Of a stretch of DNA of 64,000 nt, positions 33,610 through 56,734 are shown piece after piece (position 1 is the stretch's first letter; each line of letters opens with the position of its first letter). The notes under the pieces are model-generated. The model did not search any database. It saw only the letters and a program-made list of their open reading frames with translations, and was not told the origin of the DNA. Origin of the DNA: a virus (lineage: Duplodnaviria > Heunggongvirae > Uroviricota > Caudoviricetes); the IMG/VR virus record IMGVR_UViG_647533160_000003; one strand, written 5' to 3'. The translations under genes and the position numbers were made by a program.

Positions 33610-34821
33610 TCAAAAAAGTTTTATAAATTCATAATTCTGGTCAATTAAGGATTCAATACACACCATGCAAAAATCTACATCGTTAAAATCAGGTGTGTAA
33701 TATTCATCCTCATAACATTCATTTAGACCTTCAATCAATTTTTCTTTAAAAACTCCCCACGTTTCAATATGAACCATTTCCATATAAGGCGCATGTGTAT
33801 GTACTTGCAATACATCCCAGGTGTCTATAACCTCGATCCGCGGCTTGCAATTAATTTTTTCTAAATATGCCCTCCCAGAATTGTAAATTTTCGACATTGA
33901 TGCCCCAAAACCTGATGGTTGGTAATGAGTGTAAATGTCATAAATTTTTTGTCCTATTCTAGGGAGTTGAGAAGCATTGGATATTTGTGGCGAATGAAAG
34001 TATCGCTCTATGGAAGAAAACGCAGAAACATTAACTAGAGTAATCGTATATGGTGCTAAAGTTCTCTCGTTCAAATTTCTACATAAAATAGCAAACCCAT
34101 GGCTATTAGTCTTTTCACCGTCTGAGGACATTTTTGCCATGCTGGCTTTAATAACATTCAATTTCGAATGTAAACGAGAAGTGGAAGTCGGTTGATTATA
34201 CATTTCATCATCATACAAACATATATGAAACCCGCCAAGATGACGAAATGAGAACTTGAGTGCTTCTTCCGCAATAACTAATTTATTAATATCTAAAGGA
34301 GTAAGTGATACGTTACCTTGTAAATCATAGCAAGGTTCTAAACATAGAAAGTTTTTCTTCTGCCACACGATCATATTAAAAATAAAGTGTCTAACCAAAG
34401 GTGGCCAGTCAGGTGATATAAGTACATTGGTAATATCTCCATCAGACAAGTATGACAAGTAACTTTTTAGTTCCGCAGCATATGCCACTAGCTCAGTTCC
34501 AGCTTCCCTTGTTGGTGTTGAAAAATTTTTTAACTCAATAAGAACTAAGGATTCATTCTCTGTTGAATAAGCAACGACATCAGGTCTTAATATCTCAGAT
34601 TTTGTTGCTGAGATATTCTCATCATCTGTCATTAAATGTAACAATGTTATGTTCTTTAAACAAAACTGATAACTCTCCTTAATTTTTTTCTCTTCGGGTC
34701 TTTTCGGATTAAATTCATTTAATTTATCAATATTGATGATTGAATTATATAATCCATCTTGATCAGATAATTTGTCAATTATCCAATTTTGCATTTCCTT
34801 TTCGCTTAAAAATATTGACAC
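33610..34821 (-). CDS. hypothetical protein with N-terminal PD-(D/E)xK-like nuclease motif (403 aa); second gene of AT-rich accessory operon
   Basis: Motif RPDVVAYSTENESLVLIELK (aa ~79-99) fits a restriction-endonuclease-like core; hand-counted sample lines are about one-third G+C versus about one-half in neighbouring core genes; 26-nt gap to upstream gene on same strand. Confidence 0.55.
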   Translation of the reverse strand: MSIFLSEKEMQNWIIDKLSDQDGLYNSIINIDKLNEFNPKRPEEKKIKESYQFCLKNITLLHLMTDDENISATKSEILRPDVVAYSTENESLVLIELKNFSTPTREAGTELVAYAAELKSYLSYLSDGDITNVLISPDWPPLVRHFIFNMIVWQKKNFLCLEPCYDLQGNVSLTPLDINKLVIAEEALKFSFRHLGGFHICLYDDEMYNQPTSTSRLHSKLNVIKASMAKMSSDGEKTNSHGFAILCRNLNERTLAPYTITLVNVSAFSSIERYFHSPQISNASQLPRIGQKIYDIYTHYQPSGFGASMSKIYNSGRAYLEKINCKPRIEVIDTWDVLQVHTHAPYMEMVHIETWGVFKEKLIEGLNECYEDEYYTPDFNDVDFCMVCIESLIDQNYEFIKLF

Positions 34822-34847
34822 TAATTAGGCTCCCGTTAAACCAAAAA

Positions 34848-35669
34848 TTAAAAATCTTGCTTTACTTTATCCATGGTCAGAATTTTGCTAATAATTGAAG
34901 ATTCAAATCCATCTAAACCTGAGAGAAAGTTAATTAGCTTTTGGATATGTTGTTCTTTAGGTATAAGTATATATTTTATATCATTGAACTCAAAATCAAT
35001 GCCAAACTTTGAAAATTTTGAGCTAATTTTTGCTTTGTCATCAGAAGTGATAACACGCTCCAAACTCAGACTAGGCCATAAATCACCAATAAAAGGAGCT
35101 GGCACATAACGCCACTCTTTCTCGTCTGCATATATATAATTCTCTATTGTTTTATTATCTTTTCGCTCTAGCTTGCCTCTGTAATTTTTCATATAACGCA
35201 GTAAATTATATAGATCAGAATATTCTGCTTTCAATTTCTCAAACTCTATTCTGTTTTTGGTATCTAAATTTCCTCTAGCCTTCCAAAGCGGCACCAACTT
35301 ATTTTTAATAAGTCGAATTCTGGCATTGTATTTAGAAAATATTTCACTACTCTTATTCATATATAGAACTGGGTGTAGACCTTTCTTTTCCGCCCAAGAC
35401 TTAGTTAGCCCAAGACCGAATTCTCCATATTTTCCGCTATGATCTCTGATTTGTGATAGTTTTATGTCACAAAACGATACCATTGGTACTGCAAACCTCC
35501 TGCGTCCCCCGACTCCTCTTATTTCCTCGCGAGCAAGAAATGGTTTAAAATATTTCTCAGCCAATATGCTATAGAAAGCATCTTCGTTTTTTGTAAAATG
35601 AAACAACGTGGTTGGATGAAGACTATAAACAGATTCAACATTCGCATCAGGATTTTCAAGGATAGTCAT
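34848..35669 (-). CDS. hypothetical protein (approx 273 aa); first gene of AT-rich accessory operon
   Basis: AT-rich ORF co-oriented with the nuclease-motif gene; probable start at Met16 of the track ORF (MTILENPD); no motif recognised. Confidence 0.5.
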   Translation of the reverse strand: MTILENPDANVESVYSLHPTTLFHFTKNEDAFYSILAEKYFKPFLAREEIRGVGGRRRFAVPMVSFCDIKLSQIRDHSGKYGEFGLGLTKSWAEKKGLHPVLYMNKSSEIFSKYNARIRLIKNKLVPLWKARGNLDTKNRIEFEKLKAEYSDLYNLLRYMKNYRGKLERKDNKTIENYIYADEKEWRYVPAPFIGDLWPSLSLERVITSDDKAKISSKFSKFGIDFEFNDIKYILIPKEQHIQKLINFLSGLDGFESSIISKILTMDKVKQDF

Positions 35670-35958
35670 TTTACACCTTGTGGAAAGCCAGTTTAGTTCT
35701 GTAAATAGTATCACACGACAGGCGGCTATTCTTCTATCAATAAATGATAGGTAAGCACTTACTTTTTACGCACGTTAACTGTATAGTTCTTTCGGATACT
35801 CACTTGAAAGGACTCAATATGGGAAATAAATGTAAACATGCGCGTCGCGCATCTCGTCAGGTGCAGAAGTCAAATCCATACATTCACGAGCACTACCACC
35901 TCAGCTCTTTCACTAACCGCTACACGTTCCCCAGCGAAGCGCATAACGAGGCAAAGCA

Positions 35959-36371: not shown

Positions 36372-36996
36372 NNNNNNNNNNNNNNNNNNNNNNNNNNNNN
36401 NNNNNNNNNNNNNNNNNNNNNNNNNNNNNNNNNNNNNNNNNNNNNNNNNNNNNNNNNNNNNNNNNNNNNNNNNNNNNNNNNNNNNNNNNNNNNNNNNNNN
36501 NNNNNNNNNNNNNNNNNNNNNNNNNNNNNNNNNNNNNNNNNNNNNNNNNNNNNNNNNNNNNNNNNNNNNNNNNNNNNNNNNNNNNNNNNNNNNNNNNNNN
36601 NNNNNNNNNNNNNNNNNNNNNNNNNNNNNNNNNNNNNNNNNNNNNNNNNNNNNNNNNNNNNNNNNNNNNNNNNNNNNNNNNNNNNNNNNNNNNNNNNNNN
36701 NNNNNNNNNNNNNNNNNNNNNNNNNNNNNNNNNNNNNNNNNNNNNNNNNNNNNNNNNNNNNNNNNNNNNNNNNNNNNNNNNNNNNNNNNNNNNNNNNNNN
36801 NNNNNNNNNNNNNNNNNNNNNNNNNNNNNNNNNNNNNNNNNNNNNNNNNNNNNNNNNNNNNNNNNNNNNNNNNNNNNNNNNNNNNNNNNNNNNNNNNNNN
36901 NNNNNNNNNNNNNNNNNNNNNNNNNNNNNNNNNNNNNNNNNNNNNNNNNNNNNNNNNNNNNNNNNNNNNNNNNNNNNNNNNNNNNNNNNNNNNNNN
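36372..36996. other. run of 625 N (assembly gap or masked sequence)
   Basis: Uninterrupted n characters; ORFs translated as X across it are artefacts. Confidence 0.99.
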
Positions 36997-37760
36997 GAAA
37001 TGTTTCTACCACGGTGATAATCCATTCCATAAACCGAATCAATTCCTGAGTTCACTATCTTCATCTGAATTTCAAAAAAATCATTATTTAAATCAAAGTA
37101 AACAATAGGGACCTCATATCTTCTGCTAGAAAAATCCATTGGTGATAGATAGTTAAGACCATTTGCACTGACCTTCACTTGAATTCCAGCCTGTATACCT
37201 GAATTCGACGTTGGAGCAGAAATAAGTAATTGAGAAAGTGGGTCTCGTTTGTCTATCCACACAATGTCCCGTTGAGTATCATTAGGTTGATATTTAGTAG
37301 GATAGTTAATTTTCGTATAGTTGAGTCCAGTCCCAACAGCTTTATAATTAGACAAACTATCTGTGAAAGGGGTATATCTCTTTGCTAATAATGCCCAGTT
37401 TTCATTTTGTTTCGCGTTTTTTTCACATTCTTCAACAATGAGTGCTTCCGCAATTTTACCTAATATTCTCATAGTTGTTTTATGGGGATCTAGTTCGATA
37501 ATGATGTTTGACTTGATCACTCCTTCTTCATTAATACCAACAAGACCTAACTCTTTATCCATGAGTTCAAATAAATTTTCCCCATGCTCAATTGCTAACA
37601 AAGCTGAAGGTCGTGATAATAATGAAGAGTTATTCCAATCTCCGAGGGAGATATCCAGACCTAAATCAATACCTTTAGTCGTCACTACTAGCTGAGGTTT
37701 GGGAGGCGTAGCCCCTAATAACTCAGATAGCGTGTTGACTTCCGGTGTCTCTTTTATCAT
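36997..37760 (-). CDS. hypothetical protein, 5' portion only (3' end lost in N run)
   Basis: AT-rich minus-strand ORF starting MIKETPEV at 37760 and running into the N run after at least 254 codons; no motif recognised. Confidence 0.45.
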
Positions 37761-38034
37761 TTTTCTTATCCTGTTGCAGCGATCGCATGACAATACTATA
37801 AAACCAGCCATTTTCAAGTAAATCAATTACCTTTTAGGTGATGAAGATAAAAGTGAAGCCAACCCCTCCGTTCGAAAAGATAGATTCAAAAAAATCGCCC
37901 CCCAATGATTCCATACCTACTATGTATGGAATCATTACTGAAAATGAGTTACTTTTACTCTTGATCCTATAAGAATCTATGCCTAATATACTGTTTACTT
38001 ATACAGTGCATCGGCGTAACTCGGTGATTGTCAT

Positions 38035-43701: not shown

Positions 43702-46700
43702 ATGAAGGCTCTGATGGTTCGAACTGACTTCTCTCTTGGGGAGTCGGCTCTAAAAGCAGAAAACGCGGTGAAGATTGCCAGAGAAGCTGGCTACACCGCT
43801 GTAATTTCGGCAGATAGCATGAATATTGCGAGTGTTATTCCACTACAACGTGCCGCTGGTGACGACATGGCGGTTATTTGTGGTGTGAAACTAAACATTG
43901 TTGATGATCCCACATACGAGCACCGGGCTAAACTTGCTAAAGAGTCTATGGGATGTATGGAATCATTAGAGCGTGGGCGGAACTACTCCTTTACCGCTCT
44001 AATTAAAAATGAGCAGGGATATCGAGACATCTGCGAACTAATGACGGCGGCCAACACACGAGAACAGTTCTACTTTGTACCGCGTCTCTCGCTCGAACAG
44101 TTGGTTTCTACATATGCCAAAGGCAACATCATCCTGCTCACTGCCGACATCGGTAGCGTGTACCAACGCAACGATTTTGCAAAAATCATAAGCTCACTGA
44201 TTACAGCGGGTGGAAAAAACAACTTCTATAGTGTGGTTTATCCGCACCCTACCCCATTCTACGACCAGATTAACGTCCGGGCGATGAAAGTCGCCAGCGC
44301 ACTGAAAATAGAGCCAGTAGCGTTCTATCCCGCTTATTACGAATCGATCGACGATGCAGACATTAAAGACATTGCGCACATGGTTACGAACAACATCAAA
44401 ATCGACCAGCCGCATCGTCTGCGTATCCCCCACCAGCGAGATAACGCCGTCAATGGTCGCCGCCATCTCCTTGAGGCGCTGAAAGCCTTCTCCGTTCGCA
44501 TGGATGTGCCGGTAACAGCCGCAATGGCCTCAACAACGCAGGATACCATTATCGATGCCTGCACATGGCGCTGGCATGAATTGCCACCAGCACTGCCAAA
44601 GATGGCAGACGACGAGCCTGCAACGCTGATGAAACTGGCCGTTGCTGGGCTGCGTAAACGTCTTACCACAAAAGAGTTTGGCTACACACCACCGGCTTCT
44701 GAGAACAGGGTTTATGTTGAGCGACTTAAGTACGAAATGGACACGCTTACTCGCCTGGGATTTTGTGGTTACTTCCTGATGGTACGCGATCTGATGAATC
44801 ACAGCCGTGAAACTGGCATTCCTGTCGGGCCTGGTCGTGGTTCCTCCGCTGGCTCTTTGGTGGCATGGTGCATAGGCATAACCAACGTCGACCCTATCCG
44901 TCACGGTCTTCTGTTTGAACGTTTCATCAACCCTGAGCGTCTCGACTTGCCAGATGCGGACTTGGACTTCAGCCAGGCACGTCGCCATGAGGTGATCGAG
45001 TATCTGAATGAACGCTACGGCGAAGATTACGTTGCAGGCATTCCGAACTTCACCTACCTGGGCGCGGCCTCTGCACTACGTGACACCGCTCGTATTTATG
45101 GTGTGGAGTCCGCAGATATGGCGGTATCAAAAGAACTGAAGAACGTCGAGGATGATAGCCTTCCATTGGAAGAGCTGCGCGAACAACTGGCAAGCCTCGA
45201 CAAATACGCGACAAAATATCCTGATGCATTCAATGCAGCCTGCAAGTTACAAAGCCTTATGCGTGGCTATGGTAGACATGCGGCAGGGATGATCGTAGCA
45301 GGTGTTCCTCTGACAGAACGAACACCGGTTGAACGACGTGGTGACGCGCGTTGTATCGCATTTGACAAGCGTTACTGCGAGGCTATGGGCCTAATTAAGC
45401 TGGACGTACTTGGCCTGGCGACTCTCGATTTGCTCGATAGTGCAAAACGCTACATTAAAGAGAACACAGGTGAGGATATCAATCTTGATGCCATTTCTCT
45501 TGAAGATCGCAAGGTGCTGGATGGTTTTGCTGCTGGGTACACTCAAGGTGTTTTCCAGCTTGAATCAGGCCCAATGCGCAAGCTGCTTAAAGATTTAGGT
45601 GGTGGAATTGAGCCAATGAGCTTTAAAACGGTCGTTGCTACGACTGCGCTCTTCCGGCCGGGGCCAATTCAGTCAGGCATGTTGGATGATTATGTTTCTG
45701 TCGCCAAAGGCTTTATGACGCCGGAATCATTACACCCCGTTCTTGATGAACTTACCGCAGAAACAAATGGCGTGATTCTCTATCAGGAACAGACGATGAA
45801 CGCGACTCGATTGCTTGCCGGCTTCACAATGGCTGAAGCTGACGGCGTTCGTAAAGCGATCGGCAAAAAAGACATGGAGAAAATGAAGAGCATGGGTGAG
45901 AAGTTCATCGTTCAGGCTCAAGCTGGCTGGATCGACGTTGAGCTGGAAGATGGCACTACACAGCGCATTCACCGTGCGGAACATTTTAAATGCGAAGACG
46001 GAACTCTGAAAACTGTCGAAGAGGCACTTGAGTTCGGTGCAAAACTACCTATAAACGCAGTACGCGTTACAGCGTCACATCCAGGGCTATCAGAGATGAA
46101 AGCGAAGGAGATCTGGACCGCATTCGAAAAGAATGGTGCCTACCAGTTCAACAAATCACACTCTGTTGCTTACTCCTTAATCAGTTATCAATCTATGTGG
46201 TTGAAAACTCATTATCCCGCAGAGTTTTTCGCTGCTGCTCTCACTATTCTTGGCGAAGATAAACACCAGGGGCTGGTTAAAGATGCGCTGACCTATGGTA
46301 TTCGCGTATTGCCACCAGACGTTAACGTGTCATCTAACCGAATCGAGATCCGCACGCTTGAAGATGGCAGCCAGGTGCTGTATGCGCCCTTCTCTGCTGT
46401 GAAGGGGTGTTCTGAGAATGGCTGCCAGGCCATCATGAGAGCGCGAGAAAAGGTTGGCGGCAAATTCGAGTCACTTGCGCAATTCGAAGAAGCTGTCGAG
46501 AAACGTGCCTGTAATAGTCGAGTGCGCGAATCGCTGCAAAAAGTAGGGGCGTTTGCATCCATCGAGCCAGGTAGTCTGCCAGCAACTGATCCAGAGCGCC
46601 TCCGCGACCAGGCTGAATTGATGGGAAACCTTGTCATAGATGCAGTTAAAGCCTCACGTCCGTTTGAGATGAACCCCAAACGTTCGGCTGAGATTAACGT

Positions 46701-47220
46701 GCTCATGACACGGATGGCGGCTGAAATGGGCTTAGGTGATGAACTAATCCGCCCCAGCATTGGTATTAAGCCGAAAATCATGATCATTCTGGACAATGCG
46801 AACGGCAATGATGCTCGAACCGGTTACTTTATGGAGAACGGATACGACGATTTTAAGGCCAAGCTATTGACGGCTGGAGATTTACGCATGGGCGATCTCT
46901 ATGTCACAGGCGTTTGCAAGAAGGTTAAAGACAAAGAAAAAGACTACACCAAAGACGAGATCGGCCAGTTCACCGACTTTATGCGTGAAGAGATCAATCT
47001 GGTGCGTCCGACCTATGTGCTGACGTGTGGCAGCCGGGCAACGTCGCTCTTCAACAACAAGATCAAACCATCCGACCTGGTTGGACGCAAAGAGTATCTG
47101 CCGGAGCTGGATGTGACTGTTTTCTACGGATTTAACCCGAATATTTTGTACTTTCGCCCAGAGGAAGGCGAAAAGCTGGAAGCAATTCTGGCAGAGGTAG
47201 CGGAGACTATTAGCAAATGA
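43702..47220 (+). CDS. dnaE: DNA polymerase III alpha subunit-like replicative polymerase
   Basis: 1172-aa ORF with PHP-like N-terminus and the DnaE signature region GPGRGSSAGSLVAWCIGITNVDPI ... LLFERFINPER. Confidence 0.8.
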   Translation: MKALMVRTDFSLGESALKAENAVKIAREAGYTAVISADSMNIASVIPLQRAAGDDMAVICGVKLNIVDDPTYEHRAKLAKESMGCMESLERGRNYSFTALIKNEQGYRDICELMTAANTREQFYFVPRLSLEQLVSTYAKGNIILLTADIGSVYQRNDFAKIISSLITAGGKNNFYSVVYPHPTPFYDQINVRAMKVASALKIEPVAFYPAYYESIDDADIKDIAHMVTNNIKIDQPHRLRIPHQRDNAVNGRRHLLEALKAFSVRMDVPVTAAMASTTQDTIIDACTWRWHELPPALPKMADDEPATLMKLAVAGLRKRLTTKEFGYTPPASENRVYVERLKYEMDTLTRLGFCGYFLMVRDLMNHSRETGIPVGPGRGSSAGSLVAWCIGITNVDPIRHGLLFERFINPERLDLPDADLDFSQARRHEVIEYLNERYGEDYVAGIPNFTYLGAASALRDTARIYGVESADMAVSKELKNVEDDSLPLEELREQLASLDKYATKYPDAFNAACKLQSLMRGYGRHAAGMIVAGVPLTERTPVERRGDARCIAFDKRYCEAMGLIKLDVLGLATLDLLDSAKRYIKENTGEDINLDAISLEDRKVLDGFAAGYTQGVFQLESGPMRKLLKDLGGGIEPMSFKTVVATTALFRPGPIQSGMLDDYVSVAKGFMTPESLHPVLDELTAETNGVILYQEQTMNATRLLAGFTMAEADGVRKAIGKKDMEKMKSMGEKFIVQAQAGWIDVELEDGTTQRIHRAEHFKCEDGTLKTVEEALEFGAKLPINAVRVTASHPGLSEMKAKEIWTAFEKNGAYQFNKSHSVAYSLISYQSMWLKTHYPAEFFAAALTILGEDKHQGLVKDALTYGIRVLPPDVNVSSNRIEIRTLEDGSQVLYAPFSAVKGCSENGCQAIMRAREKVGGKFESLAQFEEAVEKRACNSRVRESLQKVGAFASIEPGSLPATDPERLRDQAELMGNLVIDAVKASRPFEMNPKRSAEINVLMTRMAAEMGLGDELIRPSIGIKPKIMIILDNANGNDARTGYFMENGYDDFKAKLLTAGDLRMGDLYVTGVCKKVKDKEKDYTKDEIGQFTDFMREEINLVRPTYVLTCGSRATSLFNNKIKPSDLVGRKEYLPELDVTVFYGFNPNILYFRPEEGEKLEAILAEVAETISK

Positions 47221-47344
47221 ATAAAGAAAACACCATAAAGGAGGCCAAAGAGTTTATGAAAGTAAACAAGATTGGCGATGTGAGATAGTACAGGCTGAAA
47301 CGCCAGACCAGAGTCACTCTATCCAACATCTTGGGTAAGAAAGT

Positions 47345-47370
47345 CGCATAAATAAAAAACCCGCCAATCG
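47345..47370. terminator. bidirectional rho-independent terminator
   Basis: AAAAACCCGCCAATCGCGGGTTTCATTT between convergent dnaE (+) and the 196-aa gene (-). Confidence 0.65.
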
Positions 47371-47438
47371 CGGGTTTCATTTATTAATTGCAGATTCCGT
47401 GTAGTGATAGTTATTAATTATCTTCCGCCAATAAGACA

Positions 47439-48029
47439 TCAACTTAACTCTTTTATCTGCTTCCAAGTTTCAATACCTATTTCAGTTAAAGCATTAAAGT
47501 AATCGTTTTTTATTTCCGCATACTTGGAATCATCAAAGTTCAGATTACCATTATTTTTTTCTTCGACGCATTCCATGAAAAATTTAAGTGCATCATTACA
47601 TTTATTAAAAATAGTTTGCTGATGAGTTTTTTTAGGATTAAGCAATACAATTATCTGATTGCATTGAATCATTACAATTTTCGCCAGTTCGTCCCCAGCT
47701 TGTTGATATGTCGGGATTGCCTGCGGATTTATCGGTCGTTTTAATAAGTTGTAATTCATATCGAGATTCGCATAAAACTCACTACTTCTTGACCTTAGCT
47801 CTTGAAGCCAACGAAGTCTTTCTGCGGTAATTATAGTTGCTTTTAATTTTTTATCTTCAATAGCAGCAGCAGAATTAATTTGTTCGTTTGTGCCTCGATA
47901 TAACAAATATGCACCAATAGCAGCGCCTGCAATAGCTGATATTGAAGATATTACAGCAATCCAAATAGCAGAATGGTCAGGTTTCGTGTTCTCTGCTATT
48001 TGCTTTAATAAATTATAAATATCAAACAT
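47439..48029 (-). CDS. hypothetical single-pass membrane protein (196 aa), AT-rich, isolated on minus strand
   Basis: N-terminal TM helix (IWIAVISSISAIAGAAIGAYLLY) then hydrophilic helical domain; visibly AT-rich versus flanks; bounded by a terminator on one side and a divergent promoter region on the other. Confidence 0.5.
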   Translation of the reverse strand: MFDIYNLLKQIAENTKPDHSAIWIAVISSISAIAGAAIGAYLLYRGTNEQINSAAAIEDKKLKATIITAERLRWLQELRSRSSEFYANLDMNYNLLKRPINPQAIPTYQQAGDELAKIVMIQCNQIIVLLNPKKTHQQTIFNKCNDALKFFMECVEEKNNGNLNFDDSKYAEIKNDYFNALTEIGIETWKQIKELS

Positions 48030-48273
48030 GAGGATAATATTTCCTTTTAATTTGAATAATTAATGATAAATGCTGTGCGGAAACATGAAGATTCTATCCT
48101 TTTCAAAACCCATATTTCTTTCGATTAAATCCACGAACACAATAGGAGAAACTCCTGCAATTAACAAGCCCTAAGAAATGGTTGTTCGAGCAGATAGCAT
48201 AACGGTCTATCTTGGATTAGCGTTAATTTAAGCTCTATAATCAATACATCATGATAAGTGAGAATCTATCAAA

Positions 48274-48705
48274 ATGAGCACCAATATATACGAAAAAATC
48301 ATGTCCGATCTCGAGTTTGACCGAGACAATCTGGAAGAAGTCTGGCGTAGACAACCCCGCCTGTTGATGGAATATGGCTCAAAACTCGCCCATGCAGAAA
48401 GAAGTGTCGCAGAAGCAAAACTTAACCTTGAAGCTGTTGAAGCAAAGCTATACGACACAGAGCGTAAGAACTTGAGTATGAATGGCATTAAGTTCAACGA
48501 ATCTGTACTGGACGCTAAGGTTAAAACAAACCCACAGTATCTGTCTAAACGGCAGAAGTTGGATGAAGCACGGCACATCGCAGACATATACAAACATGCT
48601 GTCGCCGCCTTTTCGCATCGCCGAGACATGATCGTTCAGGCGTCAAAGATGGCCATCGTTGAATTAGAGCGATTAGGCTCTGAACGCTTTATTACTCCCC
48701 GTTGA
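48274..48705 (+). CDS. hypothetical coiled-coil protein (143 aa)
   Basis: Charged helical composition; no motif recognised. Confidence 0.4.
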   Translation: MSTNIYEKIMSDLEFDRDNLEEVWRRQPRLLMEYGSKLAHAERSVAEAKLNLEAVEAKLYDTERKNLSMNGIKFNESVLDAKVKTNPQYLSKRQKLDEARHIADIYKHAVAAFSHRRDMIVQASKMAIVELERLGSERFITPR

Positions 48706-48822: not shown

Positions 48823-49851
48823 ATGTCTAAGACATTACTTGATTTGCTTAACAAAACTCGTGAAGACATTGCCGCCAAACGTGGTAACAACGTTGATCTG
48901 ACTCGCTTAAAAGACGGCGTCAACTATATCCGCATCTTCCCGAATAAAGACGACCCAAACGGTAAGTTCTTCCAGACTTTCGGTATGCACTACGTTAAGT
49001 ATCAGAACGAGGAAGGTAAAGAAGCAACCAACGCTTATATTTGTGAGCAACATACTCACGGTCGCGCTTGTCAGCTATGCGAAATGGTGATGGAAGGTCG
49101 CGCTCGTCACAAGGGTAACAAAGCAATGGAAGAACGCATCGGTCAAATGCGTGCCACGCCTCGCTACCTGGTCAACGGCATTCTTTCAGCTCGTGAGGAT
49201 TTCGCCGATGCAGAGAAATGCCAGTTAATCGAACTGCCTTCCACTGTATTCGATGATATCTGCAAAGCAATCACCGAAGACATCGCTGATGATATCGGTA
49301 ATCCACTGAGCAAAGAGGAAGGCTACGCATTCCTGATTAAACGTACTGGTTCTGGTCGCGATACCAAATATGACGTCTCGCCTAAGCGTAAAGTCTACAA
49401 AGGCGATATCGAAGATAAATTCTGGAATACCCAGCATGACCTGATCGCATACGCAAATCAGGCTGATGAAACTCGTCTTCTCTCGACAGTTCGCACTATG
49501 GGTCGTCTGATTGGCATCGCAGCACCAACTGCCTCTGCATCTGCACCAGCAATTTCCTCTACCGCGAAAACATCGACCGCGGCACTGCCTGGATTTGGCT
49601 CTGTCACTGGTCATACGGAGGGTGCGACTGCTGTAGCAACCGCTCACACCCCAGCTTCTGAACCAACCAGTCTGGTTGATGAAGAAATCCTCCGAGCCGT
49701 TGAAACTGAATTTAAACCAGAGGCAAGTTCCGCTGCCGTTGCCGTATCAGTCAAAGAGTCTGAAGCAGTCGCAGCGACATCTGTAGCAGCCGCATCTGCG
49801 ACGGAAGATGAAGGTCTGGATGATCTACTGAGAGAGCTTGACTCTCTGTAA
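48823..49851 (+). CDS. putative ssDNA-binding protein (gp32-like zinc motif, acidic C-terminus)
   Basis: Cys/His cluster CEQHTHGRACQLC and acidic tail DEGLDDLLRELDSL; conserved AAGGAGAAACACATG initiation region. Confidence 0.4.
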   Translation: MSKTLLDLLNKTREDIAAKRGNNVDLTRLKDGVNYIRIFPNKDDPNGKFFQTFGMHYVKYQNEEGKEATNAYICEQHTHGRACQLCEMVMEGRARHKGNKAMEERIGQMRATPRYLVNGILSAREDFADAEKCQLIELPSTVFDDICKAITEDIADDIGNPLSKEEGYAFLIKRTGSGRDTKYDVSPKRKVYKGDIEDKFWNTQHDLIAYANQADETRLLSTVRTMGRLIGIAAPTASASAPAISSTAKTSTAALPGFGSVTGHTEGATAVATAHTPASEPTSLVDEEILRAVETEFKPEASSAAVAVSVKESEAVAATSVAAASATEDEGLDDLLRELDSL

Positions 49852-54983: not shown

Positions 54984-55518
54984 CACCGCTGACAGCATAC
55001 ACAATCAACTGCCGCTGATAGCATATCGAGAGTCTATCTCACCGCTCACAGCATACTTTACTCGATTTTTTACCGCTGACAGCATACTTAAGACATTGCA
55101 TGAATAATATGTCCCGGTATGGGTATAACCAGAACAAAATTACCGCTGGCAGCATACGAAGGTCTGACATATACCATTAATTACCGCTGATAGCATATCC
55201 AAACAAAAATTCCTCAATAAAACACCGCTGACAGCATACGTTCTATCAGAGAGCAGCAGGCAATAAATGCCTTTCACTACAAGCAATCAGCGCAATGGCA
55301 ATAGAATGTTAGTGAGCGCAAACCTTTATGGAATGCACTCTTCGAGGTTAGTAACCACTGGGGAGGTATGACAGAGCATTGAGTGGTGATAGATGATTAA
55401 CCGCTCACAGCATACGTTTATCTCACTATACCGCTGGTAGCATATCTTTTAACCGTTCACAGCATACTTTTCAGGAAAATAGCCGCTGATAGCATACATT
55501 TCACCGCTGACAGCATAT
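54984..55518. repeat. iteron array downstream of repA (12 direct repeats, core ACCGCTGACAGCATAC)
   Basis: Copies start at 54985, 55012, 55041, 55072, 55142, 55183, 55224, 55400, 55430, 55452, 55482 and 55503 with irregular spacing and single-base variants (GAC/GAT/CAC/GGC/GGT); last copy abuts the repA stop. Confidence 0.8.
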
Positions 55519-56612
55519 CAAAGCAGTTTGAGACTATTGGAAAGGATCTCAATCATCTTGATATTTTCAGGCGTCAAATTCTGCGAAAGTTCAGTTATCT
55601 TGTTGATAATGTTCTGTTTAGCATCAATTTCCCCGGCTTTCTCATCTGGTTTTTTGGGTTCGATGTCTTCAGGTTTTGGCGGTGCGACTTTGAGTTTTGG
55701 ATTGCGGCTGTGAATCTGGATATAGATCGACCGCCCCCGCTTAATCTCGCTATATTCGAGATAGCCCAAATCTTGGAGAGCTTTTAAGCCGTTACGTATA
55801 GTCTGATTCTGCGAGCTGACATTCCTGCTACTCAAATTGAGTCGCGCACGCAATCGAGCAAGCGATACCGGCGCAGGCTTGGTTGGAAGACTTTCGATGA
55901 AGGTGTACAGAGCCTGTGCTGTTTCTTTGCGTGGTAGCTTATTGATAACCTTTAACTGCAAAAGAACCTTATGGTCAAAGCGATATAGTTCGGCCAGCTT
56001 CGGTTCTGCATAGAACACCACCGTATCTTTCTGCTCGTTGTAGTCCACGCTATTGATGAGGTGCACCATCAGAAGCGAGATCTTGTTAGAGCCGTCGACG
56101 TTCTTTTCTTCATACGTTCTCTGGAAAGACAGAGTTGTACGCATGATCTTCAAAAGACTGTTTGTAAGCCGGTCGCGGAGTGTTTTGCGGATCTGTGACG
56201 ATGGATAGCCACAAAACTTCGCAAATTTCGTGATGCTTAACTCGACACGACCGTTAGGTTCGCCGTATTCTGCCAGCGAACGCACAACGCCCACCCACGT
56301 TTTGAAATCATGATCCATGTCGAGACGAGGACCGGTTATCTTGATATCGGAATAGCCTTCAGAACGGGCTACTTCGAGCTGAACAAGCTCCTTTGAAGCA
56401 TCGATCTCATTTGGCTTGTTACGCTTGCTGTATTTTGTCCCCTTGAGCGTGGGCACGAACAACCCCAGCCGCATCAACGCAATTGGTTGGACTGTATTGT
56501 TGCTATTAGGGACAAGTTCCCCTGTGTACAATTCAAGGGAACCTTCTTCAAAGTTGTCGAGATTATCTTCTACTTCTTTGTTATTTTTACCTTTTTTATT
56601 TTTTGTGGACAT
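55518..56612 (-). CDS. repA: iteron-type plasmid replication initiator (RepA-like)
   Basis: Minus-strand gene flanked on both sides by the same direct repeats and by a GATC/DnaA-box region; start set at Met41 of the track ORF (MSTKNKKGK) because the upstream 40 codons read through the iterons. Confidence 0.6.
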   Translation of the reverse strand: MSTKNKKGKNNKEVEDNLDNFEEGSLELYTGELVPNSNNTVQPIALMRLGLFVPTLKGTKYSKRNKPNEIDASKELVQLEVARSEGYSDIKITGPRLDMDHDFKTWVGVVRSLAEYGEPNGRVELSITKFAKFCGYPSSQIRKTLRDRLTNSLLKIMRTTLSFQRTYEEKNVDGSNKISLLMVHLINSVDYNEQKDTVVFYAEPKLAELYRFDHKVLLQLKVINKLPRKETAQALYTFIESLPTKPAPVSLARLRARLNLSSRNVSSQNQTIRNGLKALQDLGYLEYSEIKRGRSIYIQIHSRNPKLKVAPPKPEDIEPKKPDEKAGEIDAKQNIINKITELSQNLTPENIKMIEILSNSLKLL

Positions 56613-56632
56613 GTGGACACCTTTGTCATTCA

Positions 56633-56734
56633 ACCGCTGACAGCATACTTGATTTGCCGCTGGCAGCATACCAAAAACAGTTGGCAGCATACGGCGAACC
56701 GTTGACAGACTATCAATTACCGCTGGCAGCATAC
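56633..56734. repeat. iterons upstream of repA (3 good plus 2 degenerate copies)
   Basis: ACCGCTGACAGCATAC 56633-56648, GCCGCTGGCAGCATAC 56655-56670, ACCGCTGGCAGCATAC 56719-56734, plus degenerate copies near 56681 and 56698. Confidence 0.75.

Follow-up and report, generated by a model that had tools for sequence, protein, structure and literature searches.

A single-gene defence candidate with one membrane helix in a variable slot of an SSU5/pHCM2-type phage-plasmid

Closest described systems

Csx28 is a phage defence protein of 177 amino acids (aa) with an N-terminal transmembrane (TM) helix and a cytoplasmic four-helix bundle. It assembles into an octameric pore and depolarises the membrane. 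The protein considered here has a similar layout and is encoded on the minus strand of the virus record IMGVR_UViG_647533160_000003 (Caudoviricetes), of which a stretch of 64,000 nucleotides, called the window below, was analysed. The window is an SSU5/pHCM2-type phage-plasmid. The window protein is close to Csx28 in size (196 vs 177 aa) and likewise joins an N-terminal TM helix to a four-helix bundle that is predicted to be cytoplasmic. Csx28 has a divergent HEPN Rx4-6H motif, depends on Cas13b and is an accessory of type VI-B2 CRISPR systems, whereas the window protein has no conserved His, has near-invariant R71, W74, R79, L130 and W189 instead, and is the product of a solo gene. Among the matches listed for PADLOC, PDB sequences and Foldseek, no link to Csx28 is found by sequence, hidden Markov model (HMM) or fold. 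Csx28 is our best guess at a working model, and the likeness is in layout only.

The gene is strongly supported as a moron, an accessory gene that was acquired horizontally and is complete in itself. A role of any kind in defence or exclusion is somewhat probable; the gene is a candidate for such a role on the basis of association. The explanation favoured overall, tentatively, is an accessory one-protein conflict system that would couple an envelope sensor to an oligomerising membrane effector. It is possible, and rather doubtful, that the gene encodes a stand-alone immunity protein against phages or mobile elements, with sensor and effector in fewer than 200 residues and from a family previously unrecognised.

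In the 4HB_MCP-type sensors (Tar, PcaY, TorS, NarX/NarQ), a four-helix bundle is also continuous with a TM helix. The bundle of those sensors is periplasmic, lies between two TM helices and feeds HAMP, kinase or signalling domains. The window protein, in contrast, has one TM helix, a bundle that is predicted to be cytoplasmic and nothing after the bundle, and shares 5-10% identity with them. The 4HB_MCP-type Pfam families give no match at E<=10 and are absent from the 25 families listed for 48 homologues (E<=0.05). This likeness is generic, with designed bundles scoring similarly.

P22 SieA, T4 Imm and Sp, and HK97 gp15 are small inner-membrane proteins encoded by phage accessory genes, with expression expected while the element is resident. 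The window protein has no sequence relationship to SieA, Imm, Sp or gp15 in PHROGs or PADLOC. Its conserved domain is predicted to face the cytoplasm and, unlike those exclusion proteins, its family also occurs outside phages. The HicAB-like/PDC-M06 pair of SSU5, Cyrano, pMT1 and pCTX occupies the same slot as the window gene, and is also on the minus strand against a plus-strand backbone. That pair is an unrelated two-gene, cytoplasmic, toxin-antitoxin-like module and not a membrane protein. DUF4062 is reported as a TIR-like NADase domain of anti-phage proteins (Evangelion, Swarozyc, NIR). It is absent from the window protein and is fused to the window-family module in one homologue, P0040.

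Topology, position, the missing partner and the lack of an HMM match lead us to reject readings of the protein as an i-spanin, as LemA or as holin-like. LemA (PF04011) gives no match at E<=10 and is not among the 25 families listed for the 48 homologues. An i-spanin (Rz-like) would be N-in/C-out, opposite to the orientation predicted here, and no adjacent or embedded o-spanin partner is present. The locus also lies between replication and recombination genes, and the family is found in non-phage islands.

An accessory gene in the dnaE/uvsY slot

The first-pass annotation had described a 196-aa minus-strand open reading frame (ORF) with one N-terminal TM helix in the interval 47345-48060. The gene, which lies inside that interval (Table 1), bears out this description. 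The protein has one hydrophobic segment, at residues 21-44, with a Kyte-Doolittle 19-residue maximum of 1.99; all other 19-residue segments score 1.6 or less. The ORF has a GC content of 0.33 and a third-position GC content (GC3) of 0.25, against 0.50 and 0.515 in dnaE, so it is, as had been claimed, more AT-rich than its neighbours. The whole AT-rich block has a GC content of 0.344 (z = -2.9) and falls in the lowest 2% among N-free 1,023-bp segments.

Presence and absence of the gene vary among close relatives. Cassette and flanks together, 1,081 bases in all, match plasmids of 16 of 5,426 complete Escherichia coli genomes at 99.9-100% identity and have no match on the chromosomes. The protein is 100% identical in those 16 E. 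coli phage-plasmids. At the DNA level, cassette and flanks are ~86% identical in Salmonella Typhi pHCM2. In PhiR41_1, homology stops at 47212 and restarts at 48236, and 95 bp stand there against the 1,023-bp cassette. A tblastn search finds the protein in 46 of 72,556 plasmids (32 from Salmonella, 11 from E. coli and one each from Klebsiella, Citrobacter and Enterobacter), all 46 of which are typed non-mobilizable, and in none of 50,697 phage records. The SSU5-type dnaE 3' end occurs in 779 plasmids, of which 733 lack the gene. The comparison with related elements that the first-pass annotation had proposed as a check therefore places the gene outside the core, with 46 carriers against 779 plasmids with this dnaE.

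The cargo of the slot between dnaE and the uvsY-like gene differs from element to element. In SSU5, Yersinia pestis pMT1 and an Enterobacter plasmid, it holds a DUF7740 gene and a minus-strand gene pair, or one member of the pair. Phage Cyrano carries a pair of similar size that is annotated as HicA/HicB, and E. coli pCTX carries CspG together with the minus-strand pair. The slot of Klebsiella pJN2-26 contains a cold-shock gene, that of another Klebsiella plasmid two plus-strand genes (one encoding a lipoprotein), and that of PhiR41_1 is empty. The pair members in SSU5, genes 054 and 055 (locus L019, 3390-4257), match the PADLOC candidate system PDC-M06B/A at 5.7e-31 and 1.2e-21, and the SSU5 annotation of one member as an AlpA-like regulator is probably misleading. 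The slot is a true variable site that behaves as a moron hotspot. The appearance of a moron, noted from the sequence at first, is thus upheld by presence and absence in close relatives, by the varied cargo of the slot, by the foreign GC and GC3 values and by the gene's own terminator.

The gene had also been placed directly after the dnaE terminator. The G+C-rich hairpin with T-runs is present, and it scores as a terminator on either strand. However, a remnant of a DUF7740 gene lies between the dnaE stop codon (47220) and the hairpin, so the hairpin is a terminator shared by convergent transcripts and not simply that of dnaE. The remnant has an internal stop, keeps ~38 C-terminal codons and has lost ~300 bp relative to pHCM2. 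An intact DUF7740 gene follows dnaE in pHCM2, SSU5 and pMT1.

The description of the gene as isolated on the minus strand holds in that dnaE before it and the uvsY-like gene after it are both on the plus strand, as are the gp32-like single-stranded DNA-binding protein (SSB) gene and nearly the whole backbone. It does not hold for the window as a whole, where a second AT-rich minus-strand island is present at 33.6-35.8 kb.

Between the window and pHCM2, the gene is 84% identical with a dN/dS of 0.20. Protein length is conserved at ~195 aa across the family, and full-length homologues of this length exist down to ~20% identity. The AAGGAA site is kept in pHCM2, and so is the terminator hairpin, which is in the same place with another stem sequence. 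The 250-nucleotide region upstream is ~95% identical in pHCM2 and is better conserved than the 3' third of the gene. Because of the dN/dS value and the 254 cluster representatives of the family, the gene is taken as real and under purifying selection. By-eye candidates for a -10 box upstream are either unconvincing or not kept in pHCM2. The intergenic region that the gene shares with the divergent uvsY-like gene contains the inverted repeat AGGAGTTTCTCCT, which could be an operator or attenuator; pHCM2 retains both arms and differs by a single change in the loop.

Divergence from pHCM2 is uneven along the gene. Synonymous divergence (dS) is 0.1-0.2 over codons 1-128 and saturated over codons 129-196. 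This jump indicates a mosaic gene with an intragenic recombination joint near codon 128. The DUF4062-fusion protein P0040 loses homology at the same point, around codon 126-128 (~47646-47654), and the matching break point suggests that the joint between helices 2 and 3 may be recurrent.

Family, topology and genomic company

The word-indexed search returns 45 relatives at 37-99% identity, nearly all of 193-207 aa. With HMMER, there are 254 matches at E<=1e-3 among 1.84 billion cluster representatives, which points to a small family. PHROG 24982, an unannotated family, matches at E 6e-139. It is the sole strong match in PHROGs at E<=10; the three weak matches (E 0.002-0.08) are not to exclusion families. 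In the closer set of 22 sequences, the signature E70-R-L-R-W-L-Q76..R79..Y86 is invariant. Across 48 diverse sequences, R71 is invariant and I11, W74, R79, L130 and W189 are each conserved in more than 90%. Scans of the window protein against Pfam, NCBIfam and PADLOC give sub-threshold noise only (YfbR-like, DUF5820, Gins23), with no PADLOC family matched at E<=10. For the 48 diverse homologues, Pfam and PADLOC give no consistent family, and the PADLOC hits are scattered over unrelated models at E>=3e-4. The protein belongs to none of the known superinfection-exclusion families (SieA/SieB, Imm, Sp, gp15, Cor/Llp) in PHROGs or PADLOC. Homologues occur in Gamma- and Betaproteobacteria and in Verrucomicrobia, and the family has members in non-phage islands. 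Literature searches on the protein accessions, the PHROG and DUF7740 find no mention, and the phage-plasmid papers and the DUF4062-defence papers contain no description of the protein. The name HCM2.0015c is not that of this gene, as it belongs to the polymerase gene.

In the AlphaFold2 model, which was built with the family alignment, mean pLDDT is 80 and most of the bundle lies between 80 and 96. A short N-terminal helix (3-14) is followed by a long helix (19-97) extending through the membrane segment into the bundle, and the remaining helices span residues 106-128, 135-159 and 167-195. The closest folds in Foldseek are four-helix bundles. Foldseek against BFVD and PDB gives nothing below E 0.04, and profile searches of PDB sequences give nothing below E 0.46.

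The ~260-aa homologues (in Proteus, Enterobacter, Trabulsiella and prophage contigs) begin with a signal peptide, MNLKL...VWA|EE. About 60 residues with two conserved Cys follow, and then the conserved TM helix and bundle. In one further homologue, the module is preceded by a cytoplasmic-looking domain and a single additional TM helix, and another has three extra TM helices with a K/R-rich loop where expected. In 48 sequences, the 15 residues on either side of the TM helix contain on average 1.06 K+R before it and 3.4 after it, and the C-terminal flank is the higher in 94%. Because of the homologues with a signal peptide or several TM helices, and because of this positive-inside charge bias, the protein is inferred to be a bitopic inner-membrane protein, N-out/C-in, with the bundle in the cytoplasm. 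About 20 conserved residues are predicted to form an amphipathic helix on the outer side. Small residues occur in the TM helix at 25, 28/29, 32, 35/36 and 40, with G/A/S in 88-96% of the 48 homologues at 25, 35 and 40. Such a stripe is typical of tight helix-helix packing and gives a hint of oligomerisation.

The ~260-aa version, in which the two-Cys periplasmic segment replaces the short N-terminal helix, is found at L027, L028, L029, L038 and L039 (Proteus, Enterobacter and Trabulsiella genomes and two prophage contigs). At L028 and L038 it is near a UmuC-type polymerase gene, and at L027 it is between a DUF927 primase gene and an integrase.

P0040, from a single 1.3-kb metagenomic contig (locus L050), has DUF4062 fused N-terminally to the TM helix and helices 1-2. 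It is 65% identical to the window protein, and homology ends at residue ~126. P0040 is treated as a recombinant of uncertain function and is given little weight, because it comes from a single short contig, ends at the recombination joint and conflicts with the topology evidence. The fusion was rejected as a route to function on the same grounds.

The immediate neighbours of the gene differ in every independent context. An all-against-all neighbour comparison of 19 contexts finds no conserved partner outside shared backbones, and the genes that lie upstream of it in Vibrio (206 aa) and in a prophage (217 aa) are unrelated. The gene moves alone, and a two-gene system is rejected. The sole hint of a conserved multi-gene arrangement is in one subclade, on three different contigs (L041-L043), where a 204-aa distant homologue is followed by the same two genes, encoding a 281-aa protein with a DpnII-MboI nuclease domain and a 190-aa protein.

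Defence or toxin genes lie within 8 kb in 11 of ~18 independent contexts, by our own count. In genome loci, the homologue adjoins ApeA, an EcoRI-type methylase with a type II restriction enzyme, a RelA_SpoT toxSAS-like gene or an AAA_13 ATPase. It adjoins MmeI_TRD in an integrative island, and in the conserved run at L041-L043 the nuclease-domain protein is the defence neighbour. On a metagenome contig, the gene stands between GmrSD_N+HEPN and SNF2+DUF1156. Other metagenome contigs carry SLFN_AlbA_2/EC042_2821 and DUF3223 (HamC), or HicAB within ~2.5 kb, with an insertion-sequence (IS) transposase on a related contig. A prophage has HipA_2/DUF3037 and an AAA_15 ATPase nearby, and the Vibrio fluvialis conjugative element has ToxN. 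Among 111 flanking proteins, strong PADLOC matches are to PDC-S06 (4e-281) and to type IIG and type II restriction-modification systems, with further strong matches to HamC, DrmMI, NsnA, LmuB and PD-T4-2_A. Defence neighbours are missing from some contexts, such as that beside umuDC or, in Pseudidiomarina, the island directly after glmS. In Proteus, an integrase lies within ~1.2 kb of the homologue, which is beside a DUF927 primase gene. A review abstract gives ~1.5% as the anti-phage share of bacterial genes. Set against that figure, the neighbourhood is clearly enriched in defence genes, with bacterial genes overall, not mobile elements, as the baseline.

Proposed role and its alternatives

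The favoured explanation is a one-protein system that would act in conflict with phages or other mobile elements. Within the family, the exchanged part is the outside segment (a short helix, a signal peptide with a Cys domain, or extra TM helices), and the constant part is the TM helix with the juxtamembrane bundle. Variability in immune proteins usually marks the sensor, and constancy the effector. The arrangement here would thus place a sensor outside and an effector inside. Either the outside segment, which varies, or the part embedded in the membrane would register an infection event at the envelope; the interchangeable periplasm-facing N-terminal module may detect envelope events at genome injection. 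The conserved TM helix and bundle would then oligomerise. The oligomer might perturb the membrane in an abortive-infection-like depolarisation, as Csx28 does but without a partner, or the bundle might otherwise intercept the entering genome. A membrane-effector mechanism specifically is possible and is held with little confidence.

The suggestion that the gene is a superinfection-exclusion or abortive-infection factor is plausible and stands in part. It is supported by the defence-gene neighbourhoods and by the candidate defence pair that the slot holds in SSU5, and it finds no match to a known family. The abortive-infection gene AbiGi, in a similar AT-rich minus-strand island of the same phage-plasmid, also counts for the defence reading.

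Several points weigh against the favoured explanation. No homology to a known abortive-infection, defence or exclusion family is found in PHROGs, PADLOC, Pfam, NCBIfam, PDB or BFVD, and no enzymatic or recognised effector domain is found in the protein. The four-helix bundle is a generic fold, and bundles designed de novo reach scores as good as those of natural bundles. P0040 would put the bundle outside if its DUF4062 domain is cytoplasmic, in conflict with the predicted topology. A solo pore-former would need its own trigger. The regions of mobile elements are rich in defence genes anyway, which weakens the association. A consensus scan of 48030-48235 finds no consensus sigma-70 promoter, and AT-rich genes are often silenced.

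Classical superinfection exclusion, in which an inner-membrane protein blocks incoming genomes (those of relatives included) while the cell survives, as with SieA, Imm and gp15, is unlikely. It would be congruent with a single-pass inner-membrane protein encoded by a moron of a temperate element. It would also be congruent with the two prophage contigs that have the homologue as their first ORF, at the contig end, where morons are typically found. The N-terminus, which faces the periplasm and would meet an entering tail tip or tape-measure protein, is what varies in the family, but conservation is highest in the part predicted to be cytoplasmic. A conserved cytoplasmic domain would fit an effector or sensor that acts from inside better than a classical periplasm-facing exclusion protein. 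The spread of the family over Gammaproteobacteria, Betaproteobacteria, Verrucomicrobia and non-phage islands is unusual for exclusion proteins specific to a receptor or a phage, and no superinfection-exclusion PHROG is matched even at E<=10.

An accessory function outside defence is an outside contender of much the same standing. The protein could serve lysogenic conversion, envelope physiology or stress tolerance, or could help the phage-plasmid life cycle by membrane tethering or lysis timing. Not all cargo of the slot is for defence, as CspG or a lipoprotein is found there in relatives; the protein has no recognisable effector domain, and the contexts beside umuDC and after glmS lack defence neighbours. 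This reading is at odds with the 11 of ~18 contexts that have defence or toxin genes within 8 kb. It is also at odds with the occurrence of homologues in conjugative elements and chromosomal islands, where there is no phage life cycle to serve, and the absence of the gene from 733 of 779 SSU5-like elements makes it dispensable for the phage-plasmid.

It is improbable that the gene is a selfish or competitive module directed at other mobile elements and not at phages, either an entry-exclusion-like protein that acts on related plasmids or phage-plasmids or a membrane toxin-like addiction factor. The homologue in the Vibrio fluvialis conjugative element is ~1.6 kb from a relaxase and coupling-protein block, which would suit entry exclusion, yet conjugation genes are lacking in most contexts, phage-plasmids of this type are non-conjugative and all 46 carriers are typed non-mobilizable. 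The slot elsewhere carries toxin-antitoxin-like pairs, and the gene is a mosaic with a joint near codon 128, whereas an antitoxin-like partner and a conserved neighbour are both missing.

A chance ORF or decaying remnant in AT-rich junk DNA, to which the decayed DUF7740 gene in the same cassette and the missing consensus promoter would be congenial, is effectively refuted by the conservation data, namely the dN/dS of 0.20 against pHCM2, the full-length homologues down to ~20% identity and the Shine-Dalgarno-like site and terminator that are both kept in pHCM2, and 196 codons open at 33% GC would be very improbable by chance.

The second AT-rich minus-strand island (GC 0.28) contains AbiGi (PADLOC 5e-47, PF10899 5e-25) and a gene for a 403-aa protein that has no family match. 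The two are probably an AbiG-type two-gene abortive-infection system. A masked run of 625 N interrupts the window, and the AT-rich minus-strand ORF that enters it has no Pfam or PADLOC match. The other minus-strand genes encode a Sel1-repeat protein and a Rep3-type replication initiator.

Table 1. Positions of the gene, its cassette and other features in the window.
Feature	Position	Strand	Basis or remark
Coding sequence of the 196-aa single-pass membrane protein (orphan family, PHROG 24982)	47439..48029	-	ORF list, ATG start
TM helix, codons 22-44	47898..47966	-	Hydropathy; AlphaFold2 helix 19-97 spans the segment
Signature E-R-L-R-W-L-Q, codons 70-76, in helix 1 of the bundle; R79 follows	47802..47822	-	Alignments
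Predicted four-helix bundle, codons 60-196 (helices 60-97, 106-128, 135-159, 167-195)	47439..47852	-	Inferred cytoplasmic
Bidirectional intrinsic-terminator hairpin	47356..47378	.	Scored on both strands
AT-rich region upstream of the gene	48030..48235	-	Sequence
AAGGAA Shine-Dalgarno-like site	48041-48046	-	Sequence
Inverted repeat AGGAGTTTCTCCT	48144-48156		Sequence; in upstream region
Entire 1,023-bp AT-rich cassette	47213..48235	.	BLAST break points 47212/48236 vs PhiR41_1
Decayed DUF7740 gene remnant (first ~7-12 codons and codons ~110-147)	47217..47349	+	tblastn with the pHCM2 DUF7740 protein
dnaE	43702-47220	+	Before the cassette
uvsY-like gene	48274-48705	+	After the cassette
gp32-like SSB gene	48823-49851	+	
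Second AT-rich island	33610-35714	-	GC 0.28
Gene for 403-aa partner of AbiGi	33610-34821	-	
AbiGi	34848-35714	-	PADLOC, PF10899
Run of 625 N	36372-36996		Masked
ORF entering the N run (readable part)	36997-37826	-	
Sel1-repeat protein gene (381 aa)	26891-28036	-	
Rep3-type replication initiator gene (404 aa)	55518-56732	-	

New single-gene defence candidates are common, and the surprise of this one is moderate. Its value is that of a compact, easily testable orphan family, which is carried also by S. Typhi pHCM2. The family is sharply conserved (R71, W74, R79) and has natural swaps of a putative N-terminal sensor. If the protein has no anti-phage effect, the gene would be an ordinary moron.

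Phage-plasmids of the SSU5/pHCM2 type are common in clinical E. coli, Salmonella Typhi, Klebsiella and Yersinia pestis, and their accessory slots decide the resistance of the hosts to other phages. If the proposed role is true, it would be the first function for this gene on pHCM2, a plasmid long called cryptic, and it would be relevant to phage therapy and to the phage typing of carriers. The catalogue of immunity proteins would then gain a four-helix bundle that is anchored in the membrane and has neither an enzymatic domain nor a partner.

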